A DNA stretch of 64,000 bases from NCBI RefSeq assembly GCF_006345805.1, contig NC_043015.1:38936001-39000000 (forward strand). The letters are read 5' to 3'. Positions within the stretch are counted from its first letter, which is position 1. The number at the start of each line of letters is the position of its first letter. This document shows positions 4,447 through 51,071 of this stretch, in pieces. The DNA comes from Octopus sinensis. Lineage: Eukaryota. The notes under the pieces are model-generated. The model made no database searches. It had not been told where the DNA came from and saw nothing but the letters and a program-made list of their open reading frames with translations. Made by a program: the position numbers and the translations under genes.

Positions 4447-4833
4447 ATATTGTTGTATTTCGGGATGGTCATTTTTTTGCCAAATAAACACACGCACTAT
4501 ATATTCGTTCTTCTCTGTTCGTATTCTAACTCATGTCGATTTTCCAGAAATCTTTCGTCACACATCTGTGACCTCTTCAGCGATACTTTCCGTCTCCGTG
4601 TGTGCTCTTGCTCCACTTATTTCTTGTAATAGAAGAACATAATAAAATAAGTAGAGCAAGAGCACACACGGTGACGGAAGGTGTCGCTGAAGAGGTCACA
4701 GATGTGTGACGAAAGATTTCCGAACAATGGACATGAGTTAGAATAAGAACAGTAATAAATGAGTGAGGAACGAATATACAGTGCGTGTGTTTATTTGGCG
4801 AAAAAAAATGACCGTCCCGAAATATCACAATAT
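4447..4833. mobile_element. Inverted-repeat element (about 180-bp arms) carrying a hammerhead in each arm; PLE inverted-pLTR-like
   Basis: 4447-4622 is a diverged reverse complement of 4645-4833. It abuts (TA)n. Confidence 0.8.
4684..4723 (+). ncRNA. Minimal type-I hammerhead ribozyme motif (mirror copy on - strand at 4544-4583)
   Basis: tcg CTGAAGA g gtcaca-gatg-tgtgac GAAA gatt TC cga. Confidence 0.7.
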
Positions 4834-4960
4834 CCGTTTCAACACACGGTTTCACATCAGGAACCTTGCAACACAAATTCGTAAAGTATGTATTCTTAGT
4901 TAATTAAAGCTTGTGGGTACACCTGGTAGTGTGCCGAATATAGCACGTTCACTTTCGAAA

Positions 4961-5068
4961 AGTCACCTGTAGGGACACATCTGCATCGAAGGATGCACTA
5001 CAACCAATTATGTGGTAACTCACCTGCGCAGTATCGATGCAAGGTGGGTCGAAACGATCGTTGTGATT
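4961..5068 (+). ncRNA. Degenerate hammerhead with long stem II
   Basis: agtcac CTGTAGG gac...gcatcga//tcgatgc...gtc GAAA CGATCG TT gtgatt. Two core substitutions. Confidence 0.5.
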
Positions 5069-5768
5069 AATAATCTTGTAAATTCCATTTCCTGTTTCTC
5101 TCATTTGCTACACACACAGGTGTGTGTGTGTGTTTGTGTATACAGTTACAGATTTTTCTAGTCGGATAGATCTAGAAGTAAAAAGTAACCGAATCATATT
5201 AGCGATGTATTTAACTGAAGCACCCCAATGGAAGGAGGACATCTGATTGGTTATATTAAGTAAACGAGAATTGGTAAATGTCGCTGTGAAAGCAACGAGA
5301 GAGGAGAAGCGGAGACAGCAGGAAGATAGGGGTGTGTGGATGGCAAGAATTTCGGGGGATTAAAATGGACGTTTATTCATCAATGAAGAATAACAATTTA
5401 CACAAGAATTTCGTCTACAGCTTTACAAGTACTTAAAACAAGTTCCACGTTGTTCTATTTCTCACACCTACTTTAACTGAAGTTGAAATGGAGTGTTAAC
5501 CAAAAGAGGCAGATTTCATTACGAAGGTCTCACACAACACACTCCTCCATCAGCTCTCTCTTCCATCAACTGGATTTATTCTCAATCTACACATCAGCTT
5601 TTACAGATTTATTTGAGCCGTACATTTGAGTTAACCCCTTAGCCACCCCGTTTCAACACTCAGCTGCAGTTCACAAAAGTTGTCCGCATACTATTCTTAA
5701 AAAGGAATGAACGACACAACATTCCTTTTACCCTTTCAACTTTATATTTCAATATGTAATTGTGTGTA

Positions 5769-6149
5769 AGGCGGCGAGCTGACAGAAACGTTAGCACGCC
5801 GGGCGAAATGCATAGCCGTATTTCTTCTGCCGCTACGTTCTAAGTTCAAATTCCGCCGAGGTCGACTTTGCCTTTCATCCTCTCGGGGTCGATTAAATAA
5901 GTACCAGTTACGCACTAGGGTCGATATAATTGACTTAATCCGTTTGTCCTCTCTGTGTTTAGCCCCTTGTGTGTAGTAAAGAAATAGGTATTTCGTCTGT
6001 CTTTATGATCTGAGTTCAAATTCCACCGAGGTCGACTTTGCCTTTCATCCTTTCGGGGTCGATAGATTAAGTACCATTTGGATACTGGGGTCGATCTTAT
6101 AGACTGATCCCTCCCCAAAATTTCGAGCCATGTGCCTAGAGTAGAAAAG
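5769..6149 (+). mobile_element. SINE family C, dimeric (Meta/MESC-like central domain)
   Basis: GAGTTCAAATTCC B box plus GTCGACTTTGCCTTTCATCCTTTCGGGGTCGAT..AAGTACCAG, present twice. Many more copies: 3775-3917, 18655-18866, 31093-31435, 35952-36172, 48932-49147, 50255-50425, 55165-55320, 56610-56800, 58958-59160, 59870-60155. Confidence 0.85.
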
Positions 6150-6479
6150 AACATATAAATGTGTGTGTGTTTGTATGTATATATATGTATATATATGTAT
6201 ATATGTATGTATATATATATATATATATATATATATATATATATATATATATATATATATATATTATATATATATATATATATATATGCGGTTTTCACCG
6301 TTAATACATGGTGTTTGTCAATTTTAACCCACGCTGGTGGAAAGGGGAGAGCAGAAATTCTTCGCTTGCATATTCGAATTTGATAGCACTTTTAGTTCGA
6401 GCAGAATTCTAGAGGTGATTAGAAGCCGAAAGGGTATGCTCCCGACTTTCAGTGTTCCCAAATCCGATTCAAGGAATTC

Positions 6480-6531
6480 TGAGCTGAAGAAAGAAATGTC
6501 GAATTGACTAATCTAGAAACGTACGTTCTCA
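6480..6531 (+). ncRNA. Minimal hammerhead motif
   Basis: tgag CTGAAGA aaga-aat-gtc gaatt gac-taa-tcta GAAA CGTACG TT ctca. Palindromic ACGTACGT stem III; AATAAA follows. Confidence 0.65.
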
Positions 6532-47700: not shown

Positions 47701-47978
47701 CATGTATGGATGTACGTAATTCTGTGTATGTGTTCGTGTGATATGTGTGTGTATGGTTCTTCTGTGTATGTCTGAGACAAGATGTGCATGCATGTGTGTG
47801 TGTACATATCTATCTATATATACATGTATGTATATACACGTATGTATATATATGTATATATGTGTGTATATATATATATAATATATATATATATATACAT
47901 ACATACTTACACACACACACACACACACACACACACACACATATATATATATATATTATATATATATATATATATATA

Positions 47979-48081
47979 AAGTAGTACCTCGGTAGTAAAT
48001 CGTGCTTTATATATATATACATTTATATATAAAGCACGATTTGTTCGTGATCAGAGGCGTTCGTAAACCGAGGTACTACTG
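47979..48081. mobile_element. Tiny pogo/Tigger-type MITE remnant in (TA)n
   Basis: TIRs AGTAGTACCTCGGT / ACCGAGGTACTACTG followed by TA. Confidence 0.6.
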
Positions 48082-48669
48082 TATATATATATATATATAT
48101 ATAATATATTATATATATATTATATATATATATATATATATATATATATATATATCTATATATATATATGTATGTATGTATGTATATATATATATGTATA
48201 TATGTGTGTATATATATATATGTATATATGTATATATATATATATATATATACATATATGTATATATATATGTATATATGTATGTATATATATATATATA
48301 TATATATATATATATATATATATATATATATACATATATGTATATATATATTATATATATATATATATTATATATATATATATATTATATATATATATAT
48401 ATATCTATATATATATATATATATATATACATTTATATATATATCAAAGACATATATACATATATATGTATATTTGTATTTGTATATCTATGTGTGTGTG
48501 TGTGTATGCATGTGGCTATGTGCGCGTATGTCTATGTGTGAACGTGAGCAAGCACAGGTGTTTATTTAATTAAAATCATATATTTCGAATTGCCTGATAA
48601 TCTTTTTCTGTTCTTGTATTTGATTTGCAAAATTCTTGATGTGAACACGTCGTGTTGAAACACATTTTC

Positions 48670-49346
48670 TTGTACCTTGGTCGATGGGTGGAGGTGGGGG
48701 AGGTCATAACGCCTGTAATAAACACAAGCACTGGTTTTATCTCACCTCCTTATTATTAGCCAATTGCTAAGTTATTTAACCAACCAATTAATCGGGTGCT
48801 TGCTTAATCAGTCGCTTAATCAATCAATCAGTCGTTTGTCAAAGTCCTTTCGTCGCTTTTCGCGACCTCATCAATGACATGCTCCTTTTCAAGTCTGTCT
48901 GTTGTTTGGTTCCTATTTGTGTAGTATTTTAGGCGTCGGGCTGGCAGAGTTGTTAACACGTCAAGCAAAATGATTTGTGGCGTTTCGTCTGTCTTTATGT
49001 TCTGAGTTCAAATTTCGCCGAGGTCGACTTTGCCTTCCATCCTTTCGGTGTCGATAAAATAATTACCATTTGGGCACTGGAGTTGATGTAATCGACTTAG
49101 TCTCCCTCCTCCGAAATTGTTGACCCAATGCCAAAATGTAGAATCAATATTTATATAGTATAGCCATATATCTCTCTCTCTCCCTCTCTGTTTCTCATGT
49201 ACATGACTGATTGATTAACCGAATGATTAAGCAAGCAATCTATTAGTTTGCTGGTTAAATAAGTAATCGATTGACTAATAGGAAAGAAATGAAACAGAAC
49301 CAGTGCGTGTGGTTATTACTGACGTGATGACCCTCCCAAGATACAA
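48670..49346. mobile_element. Diverged foldback element with a SINE C inserted in its spacer
   Basis: 48670-48833 is an approximate reverse complement of 49205-49346. Confidence 0.65.
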
Positions 49347-50984
49347 TCTTTTTTCTGTTTATTCTCAGTTTTCACAGCAACAGCAACAGCAGCAGCAACA
49401 ACAACAACAATAGCAACGAGAGCTTCAACTACAACTGTTTAGTAACTAACTGATTTGAACTGAATTCCATTTTCCTCCTTTTATCCCACTTTTCTCCCTC
49501 TTTTCTCCCCCTATATTCCCTGATGTTCTACACTGAAGATCAAAGGTTAATAACGTTTAAGACTTGTCAGCTAAATATATCCACAATGACACTGCAAGCA
49601 TCTTAAGCCAATATGCAAACCTCTATCCATCTTTATACACGACCTCGACACTATCTTCATGTATCACTTCTCTTATATGATCTCCATACCATCCTAATAT
49701 ATTCTGTGCTAACTTCATACTTGGCCTCTGTTGCGTCATATTTCCTTACACGACTTCCAAACTCTCTTCATATCTGGCCTCTGTACCATCTCCGTACGTA
49801 ATCTCTACCCTCTCTTTCTGTTTTATATCACATGAAGCCAGAACATTCGCCTGTGGCTCTTTATCAGAGGCAAAGCAGCAATCATACTTCGCCATTTGCC
49901 TGTTATCCAGAGCTGCTAGGAGAAGGGGTAAGTTATCCTCGGACCAAAGACCAGAGACCTGAATCCTTCCAACTGAACAGCACCAAGTGATGGTATTAAA
50001 CCTGGTTACCGATTCCTTTCAATGTGTTCCTTGTGTTTTAAAACTGTTTATTACAAATCTGTCGTCTCAGGAATAATTTGTCTAAAATATCTAAAATTGA
50101 TTTCGGAAAAAGGTTGCGAATGACACTTTTGAATAATTTGGAAAACTGATGAAGAATACATAAACGGGTAGCAGCTTTATAGAGAGGGATCTGTAATAGA
50201 CGCCCTACGGGGACCACCGTTGTAAGTCGGTTGATCATATTTAAGCTAACCTTTGCGGCATTTCGTCCGTCTTCGTGTTCTGAGTTCAAATTCCGCCAAG
50301 GTCGACTTTGCTTTCTATCCTATCGGGGTCGATAAAATAAATACCAGTTAAGCACTGGCGTCGACGTAATCGACTTTCCTCCCTCCCCCGAAATTGCTGA
50401 CCTTGTGCCAAAATATGAAACCAACATTAAAGCTAACGCCATTTTAGTAATTGGTCTGGGCTAGTGACCTGAATAAAAATTTATTTTTTCAATGGAATGA
50501 AATTGTCTGGATTTACCAAGCTTAAAAGACTATCATTGACATCTAAGTTAAAGATATAATCACCACACCTCTTACTCACATTTGAACATATACAAATAAG
50601 AACTTCACGACACAATCCATAATGCGCACATGTAAATGTTACATAAAAAGGAATGAGCAGATTTATGTTTTTGAAATATATATAATACATAAATAGAGAC
50701 AGATGGCGCGTTAAAGTATCATAAAAGCATGAAAATATTAATAGCTCTTACACTTGCCTATTAGATATATATATATATATATATGTGTGTGTGTGTGTGT
50801 GTGTGTGTGTGTGTGTGGTGTGTGTGTGTATACTTTGGGTATGGTAGATGAGTTCAGCAAAAATTTAGATTCAGATGAATATGGTGCTTAAGTTGAGGCA
50901 CCAGAATTTAGTACGGTATTATCCATACAATTTCAAAGTAAGGTGGTTAAAATCAAAATAAGCAACAAGGATATCCAGAGGTAA

Positions 50985-51071
50985 TGCAGTACGATCGTTT
51001 CATGCAACTCCATTTAATTGGACAATGCAATCAATAAATCAATTTAAAATGCAGAGCAATCCTCAGCTGCA
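50985..51071 (-). ncRNA. Type-I hammerhead with long stem II and palindromic stem III
   Basis: Minus strand: tgcag CTGAGGA ttgc...gcat GAAA CGATCG TA ctgca. Lies in an element that starts next to (GT)n at ~50830. Confidence 0.75.

Follow-up and report, generated by a model that had tools for sequence, protein, structure and literature searches.

Minimal hammerhead ribozymes are found in the pseudo-long terminal repeats (pseudo-LTRs) of metazoan Penelope-like elements (PLEs), where a type-I core is combined with a short stem I and a palindromic stem III, and where many families per genome occur mostly as single truncated copies and in some cases as opposite-strand pairs 100–700 bp apart (Cervera and de la Pena 2014, PMC4209133). 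Low cleavage in vitro was already noted there, and a circular template was proposed. Endonuclease-positive PLEs (Neptune, Nematis and Hydra) have in common 5′ truncation, partial tandems, an inverted 5′ copy, a tail at one end and a bias towards (TA)n (Craig et al. 2021, PMC8557442). PMC3846280 likewise describes inverted copies, tails at one side and the (TA)n bias. In vitro, the protein of Poseidon, a PLE of Anolis, cuts and extends both strands at AT-rich targets and uses two internal start sites that bound the tail; it is predicted to be a dimer, its main substrate is uncut RNA and ribozyme cleavage is not needed (Frangieh et al. 2024, PMC11167929). Animal non-LTR retrozymes are tandem elements without an open reading frame (ORF), carry one type-I hammerhead per unit and range from monomers to multimers (PMC7229834; Li et al. 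2026, bioRxiv 10.64898/2026.07.22.740005); a PLE origin has been put forward for them in the 2026 preprint. Both PMC8557442 and PMC11167929 leave open how PLEs finish integration and why only one side of their head-to-head copies is tailed. Here we analyse a microsatellite-rich stretch of 64,000 nucleotides (nt) from the 2.72-Gb genome of Octopus sinensis (NC_043015.1; G000:C19:38936001-39000000), hereafter the window, which contains six hammerhead-bearing insertions. These are probably pseudo-LTR sequences with Penelope-like insertion anatomy, generated by two-ended priming on mostly uncut RNA. What is new is the mechanistic record of integration that they hold; minimal hammerheads, inverted 5′ copies, tails and the microsatellite bias have been published before.

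A scanner that combines the core (CUGANGA, GAAA and UH) with stems I and II and a self-pairing stem III recovered all eight motifs that an earlier sequence-only reading had placed in the window, at the same positions. Six have a perfect core (4544-4583(-), 4684-4723(+), 6480-6531(+), 36755-36797(-), 37102-37144(+) and 50984-51072(-)), against a mean of 0.025 and a maximum of 1 in 40 shuffles of the window that kept dinucleotides within 300-bp blocks. The other two are degenerate: 4961-5068(+), with CTGTAGG and two core mismatches, and 7712-7749(+), with CTGTTGA and a single mismatch, A6 being U. Because two of the insertions are head-to-head pairs, the eight motifs represent six insertions, one from each of six families, A to F. 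As the same reading had supposed, the families are unrelated and multi-copy, and such motifs are dense in the genome. First-look candidates numbered 3453 for A, 612 for B, 1456 for C, 1066 for D, 795 for E and 3095 for F, and exact genome matches were 4316 for a 31-mer of E and 1564 for a 33-mer of C, with none for the reversed controls. A random sample of forty 10-kb stretches, placed at round coordinates and totalling 399,800 bases, contained nine perfect-core and nine one-mismatch motifs, compared with 0–1 and 0–3 in each of eight shuffles; 8 of these 18 motifs lay within 200 nt of a microsatellite, against 17% expected, and motif density in the window is 3–4 times that of the sample. Extrapolation gives about 60,000 perfect-core motifs in the genome (Poisson range about 28,000–116,000), a lower bound because variant cores escape the scan. 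The figures given for schistosome, coelacanth and frog are 2,000–9,000 (PMC4209133), and 126,247 motifs are reported for the axolotl, a retrozyme host together with coral and mussel (PMC7229834). The motifs are real, abundant and of a known kind, and their catalogue itself is ordinary.

In their type-I core, short stem I and palindromic stem III the octopus motifs resemble those of described PLE pseudo-LTRs. The claim that stem III is always self-pairing holds for all six families; in each it could also pair between two copies. Predicted dimers lie 6–15 kcal/mol below two monomers, but in most cases the fold obtained differs from that of the active dimer. A canonical core was found in 16/20 loci of A, 6/20 of B, 20/20 of C, 0/20 of D, 30/30 of E and 19/20 of F. 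In D, A6 is replaced by U in 20 of 20 loci; related motifs in the random sample retain A6. Families A and D have both an extra base after A9 and the G10.1–C11.1 pair, B has the pair without the extra base, and positions 10.1 and 11.1 are A.A in C, U-A in E and U.U in F. The fixed A6-to-U change in D and the lack of the G10.1–C11.1 pair in C, E and F set these families apart from the hammerheads described in PMC4209133. We regard all six as carrying PLE-type type-I hammerhead motifs. None of eight loci had an Rfam match at the gathering score, and no hammerhead family appeared among 150 listed of the 288 weak Rfam matches in the window; minimal hammerhead motifs of this type escape Rfam.

The anatomy of the insertions is most legible in families C and E. 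The window copy of C (6287..6820, +) comprises 534 nt of a 557-bp unit between two (TA)n tracts, has the long 3′ end described below and would be cut after 6527. From the first 100 exact matches on contig C1, located with a probe upstream of both end sites and thus without bias to any pairing, we obtained 46 insertions after two duplicated copies were dropped: 33 head-to-head pairs and 13 single arms. Arms end about 293 (long) or about 199 (short) unit positions from the predicted cut site, each time at a TA-like stretch, and the resulting tail is 95–105 nt. Thirty pairs ended at fixed sites on either side, and all 30 combined one long arm with one short arm (p = 9e-10 against a coin toss). 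Family E gave the same picture, with long-plus-short pairing in 13/13 pairs among 19 insertions. The preference for (TA)n that the sequence-only reading had proposed is borne out for C: 67 of 75 arms have a microsatellite at their end, compared with 5.8% of random 30-mers. In 10 of the 30 C pairs the short arm extends past the 5′ end of the long arm by more than 20 nt, and in four the two arms do not overlap at all; such a short arm cannot be a simple fold-back copy. At one locus (L341) the short arm measures 1585 nt and the long arm 70 nt. Moreover, 47 of 79 C arms cross the ribozyme cut site, and 31 are longer than one unit, 6 of them longer than two. Six of about 75 C arms have 5′ ends from −7 to +12 nt around the cut site, which is not a significant pile-up (the 41–80 bin held 16), and none of 32 E arms ends there. 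Because arms cross the cut site, the template was mostly uncut RNA, and most copies were not made by cleavage of dimers.

In the window, E consists of an inverted arm with the short 3′ end running into (TA)n (36659..36809, −; hammerhead 36755-36797) and a direct arm with the long 3′ end and a tail of about 80 nt into (TA)n (37075..37321, +; hammerhead 37102-37144). Between them lies an inverted copy of host DNA (36804..37080, −) of 277 nt that is 100% identical to 35900-36176 and has short microhomologies at both sides. Host DNA was copied between the arms in 3 of 30 E loci (the window, L004 and L013), over 166–275 nt at 99–100% identity. Junction overlaps are mostly 0–6 nt, and a target duplication (about 16 bp, L338) was seen at one of 17 loci examined. 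Family E is 253 nt long, has no ORF and shows 99% identity among best matches. Its 5′ boundary is fixed and sits 72 nt 5′ of the cut site; none of 30 loci, which had been selected for that boundary, shares sequence beyond it. At L261-L266 (G000:C1:3736009-3736823), a complete head-to-head E unit stands three times in tandem, apparently duplicated after insertion. Inverted copies upstream were present in 9/20 best matches of A, 4/20 of B, 7/20 of C, 27/30 of E and 4/20 of F, so that A, B, C, E and F all show an inverted 5′-truncated copy with a one-sided tail; none was found in the 20 best D matches. Two further window insertions have no ORF partner so far. Family B (4952..5110, +), which contains the decayed hammerhead 4961-5068, is old, with 75–80% identity between copies and about 470 nt of common upstream sequence, and no linked ORF was found in 40 loci. 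Family F (50829..51186, −; hammerhead 50984-51072) represents the 3′ end of an element that is non-coding and at least 2 kb long, an AT-rich common sequence with an internal duplication, and seven long copies had no linked PLE ORF.

We propose that a dimer of the PLE reverse transcriptase (RT)–endonuclease would cut both strands within a (TA)n tract and that each freed DNA end would prime reverse transcription at an internal site of the RNA, the far start site giving the long arm and the near site the short arm. Both arms would thus be copied from RNA. The two complementary DNAs (cDNAs) would stop independently, and their 3′ ends would be joined by microhomology, at times by way of a templated copy of neighbouring DNA; the predicted outcome is head-to-head arms with a tail on one side only. 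Hammerhead dimers as two templates for the two arms were not adopted as an explanation, because Naiads make the same inversions without canonical hammerheads (PMC8557442). In read-through RNA of A and E the two arms are predicted to pair completely and to bury the ribozyme, and such copies would therefore not cleave. C and E, which have no ORF, would on this sequence evidence likely be moved in trans by a PLE protein, and the ORF-less F probably so.

Families A and D are of another nature. In the window, A is a head-to-head pair, with an inverted arm whose short 3′ end runs into (TA)n (4447..4623, −; hammerhead 4544-4583) and a direct arm with a tail of about 55 nt (4629..4885, +; hammerhead 4684-4723), the latter being the 3′ pseudo-LTR of a coding PLE whose linker is Nematis-like. 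A truncated RT–endonuclease ORF lies upstream of A in 1 of 20 loci and the endonuclease lies inside the inverted arm of another; conversely, of 25 loci found with that endonuclease region, 17 have A behind it on the same strand. Family D (7664..7846, +; hammerhead 7712-7749) is the 3′ end of a Neptune-like PLE: in a search of 40 D loci its upstream sequence ran into the C terminus of a GIY-YIG endonuclease at L384, L103 and L376, and L379/L395 form a partial tandem of D 5′ part, RT–endonuclease and D 3′ part. By sequence, then, A and D are 5′-truncated 3′ ends of coding PLEs and not separate non-coding elements. The putative partner labels Nematis (A) and Neptune (D) come from linker motifs. 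The sequence-only reading had envisaged a population of non-coding hammerhead retroelements, which is upheld by the ORF-less C, E and F and not by A and D; its programme of linking each family to a PLE ORF succeeded for A and D and failed for B, C, E and F in the loci sampled.

That reading had also noticed two decayed PLE ORFs in the window and named them as candidate mobilizers. Both exist. The better-kept one (10388-11130, +) is a PLE RT with its first 70 nt inverted and its 3′ side broken off directly beside a long interspersed nuclear element (LINE) RT fragment (11200-12750, −; Pfam RVT_1, E = 5e-16). The other (1370-2210, −) is a heavily decayed Hydra-like thumb plus endonuclease with a CxCx5C linker (E = 6e-7 within that stretch), behind which no hammerhead was recognized. 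They were missed by Pfam (260/261 ORFs), by tblastn and by Neptune/Nematis-type profiles because they belong to the Hydra clade; the same Neptune/Nematis-type searches detect a control locus at E = 1e-27. The 10388-11130 fossil was found by reading frames by eye, and by eye it resembles Hydra-1_Obim. Relatives of this fossil share DKT, the CxCx5C linker and an endonuclease at the C terminus that contains CxxC and CxH, and they have a canonical hammerhead. These protein features mark the Hydra clade, which is listed for Octopus bimaculoides (PMC8557442), and by such motif marks both fossils are Hydra-clade PLEs; a Naiad label was dropped, since a relative has the C-terminal endonuclease. Across 14 loci the 10388-11130 family ends in its own hammerhead-like motif, which matches none of A to F, and the fossils are therefore not the partners of these families.

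Intact-looking RT plus GIY-YIG ORFs of 775–781 amino acids (aa) do exist in the genome, which holds 5029 GIY-YIG candidates, a small part of which was inspected. The coding PLE 3′ ends inspected carry hammerheads other than those of B, C, E and F, including a U3-A8 variant that was not found in the window or the random sample. No RT plus GIY-YIG ORF was linked to E in 30 + 30 + 30 loci or to C in the arrays sampled. Neptune ORFs near C (L216, L146), E (L139, L161, L163) and B (L441) were set aside as partners, being separated by (TA)n or having another 3′ end. Several observations from these loci stand on their own. L157, L158 and L166 have long open frames of Neptune-type PLEs with the U3-A8 variant hammerhead in the 3′ untranslated region; a 479-aa frame without a Pfam match above cut-off overlaps the start of the 781-aa Neptune RT–endonuclease frame (L161:1174-2610, L164:1063-2499) and is possibly a frameshifted or spliced N-terminal part; and at least ten further hammerhead families unrelated to A–F were met (L159, L163, L178, L195, L200, L204, L205, L207 and L416), several of them palindromes between (TA)n tracts or tandems of about 500 bp (L178).

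The alternative closest to two-ended priming is that only one arm is copied from RNA and that a cDNA or antisense RNA end snaps back to make the inverted arm, a route suggested for the Penelope elements of rotifers; PMC3846280 puts forward self-priming with an antisense template. The nested pairs, 20 of 30 in C, fit fold-back equally well, the commonest E junction (about half of 30 loci) looks like snap-back at the very 5′ end, and at L216 the two junction-proximal units have two variants in common. The ten non-nested C pairs, four of them without any overlap, already strain this account, as do the L341 arms and the non-nested E arms at L277 and L279, and we judge it unlikely. That C and E are instead tails of coding PLEs yet unfound, with the C arrays as satellites grown by unequal crossover from a solo pseudo-LTR, has a precedent in A and D, which proved to be just such tails, and in the local amplification of pseudo-LTRs into arrays discussed in the 2026 preprint; the small part of the GIY-YIG candidates inspected leaves room for it. 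It meets with the hard 5′ limit of E, with the sequence upstream of C units, which is another C unit, an inverted arm or flank and never a common ORF-bearing extension, with the dispersal of C at up to 99–100% identity, and with insertions of which both arms are multi-unit, one (L215) having a private 10-nt deletion in 6/6 complete units across both arms. We therefore hold it to be quite improbable. E copies also look like inverted-repeat elements between TA tracts, as if the palindromic units were DNA transposons of the miniature inverted-repeat transposable element (MITE) kind that target (TA)n and carry the hammerhead as a passenger. Their two ends, however, differ by a fixed tail, and junctions vary by locus. 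Single arms are frequent, as is 5′ truncation to varying extents, and A and D run on into RT–endonuclease ORFs; these ORF links and the variable junctions already contradict a MITE, a reading that we consider very improbable indeed.

Two-ended priming on mostly uncut RNA remains our preferred account, and several points besides the nested pairs and the snap-back-like E junctions weigh against it. In vitro, the two strands did not differ in start site (PMC11167929), in contrast to the strict long-plus-short pairing in the genome, and in three C pairs one end lay away from both fixed sites. Among 25 GIY-YIG loci, 12 longer stretches and 14 Hydra loci, no coding PLE terminated in the sequence of B, C, E or F, and mobilization of these families in trans is proposed from insertion anatomy. 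The longest C arrays, of 10 to 13 units, may have expanded once inserted. Finally, assembly error and central deletion are known hazards of palindromes and arrays, and the junctions described here are those of the assembly.

Family C is best described, from its tandem anatomy, as a young ORF-less element of the retrozyme type: a 557-bp unit with one canonical type-I hammerhead each, dispersed in the genome at 99–100% identity among best matches and with arms of up to 13 units. Like animal retrozymes, it inhabits a genome with active-looking PLEs. Its unit is longer than the 150–450 bp given by Cervera and de la Pena (2020, PMC7229834) and falls within the 51–972 bp of the 2026 preprint. Arms longer than a unit call for a longer template, either a circle formed by occasional self-cleavage and ligation or a read-through multimer; we infer a circle, with weaker confidence. 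The deletion shared by all complete units at L215 fits a circle and equally a transcript of a homogeneous array, and unit variants do not separate circular from linear multimers. No run recorded as RNA was listed for C; in four runs presumed to be RNA, contigs span the C unit and reveal no ends, joints or strand. Tentatively, and with rather less than even confidence, we suggest that C is a very young cephalopod retrozyme whose unit copies, over a thousand in number, would record the missing steps of PLE integration, and for which the enzyme dimer would prime both cut ends, using each start site once, on uncut and probably circular RNA rolled past the ribozyme site, with microhomology repair joining the ends. 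If true, one mechanism would explain tails, head-to-head inversions and tandem arrays, and would tie retrozymes to PLE enzymes by insertion anatomy. In this C differs from animal retrozymes, whose tie to these enzymes is phylogenetic: here it consists of inverted arms with two fixed ends. No cephalopod was met among the retrozyme hosts of PMC7229834 and the 2026 preprint, and 1/9 frog hammerhead dimers cleaved in the preprint; we found no paper on cephalopod retrozymes in literature whose coverage mostly excludes subscription journals.

Relative to endonuclease-positive PLEs, the octopus insertions share 5′ truncation, partial tandems, inverted 5′ copies, a one-end tail and the (TA)n bias, and they differ in tail length (about 80 nt in E and 95–105 nt in C, against 30–40 bp in PMC8557442) and in that strict long-plus-short pairing and non-nested arms have been counted here. 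As with the Poseidon protein, two internal start sites, extension of both strands, AT-rich targets and uncut RNA recur; in the octopus both sites serve once per two-armed insertion and templated flank DNA is present at some junctions, whereas in vitro the start site did not differ between strands and later steps are left open (PMC11167929). No paper applying twin priming to PLEs was found by title, abstract or term counts, within the same journal coverage. The suggestion that such elements are poorly catalogued in cephalopods is too wide: the PLEs of O. vulgaris have been catalogued as 190 families making up 6.83% of the genome, 31 of them recently active (PMC13282606), although the main text of that paper mentions neither hammerheads nor ribozymes.

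The window E insertion lies in the 19-kb last intron of a paired-like homeobox gene with an OAR motif (20161-20795, 27477-27522 and 46394-47050, +; Pfam), which we take to be aristaless/Arx-like. The E palindrome should, by prediction, fold into a long pre-mRNA hairpin, a possible substrate for RNA editing. Elsewhere in the window, a decayed frame at about 25500-25900 (+) resembles the C-terminal restriction-like endonuclease of Dong/R4-type LINEs, and a GC-richer tandem repeat at 26087-26678 has open frames in several phases.

In C and E, two young and abundant families, the elements are short enough for every insertion to be followed over its whole length, and PLE integration becomes countable genome-wide; the two families are also a ready template for the existing in vitro PLE assay. 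In a genome of the octopus type, tens of thousands of such stubs are likely to be filed as short interspersed nuclear elements (SINEs), MITEs or unknown repeats.

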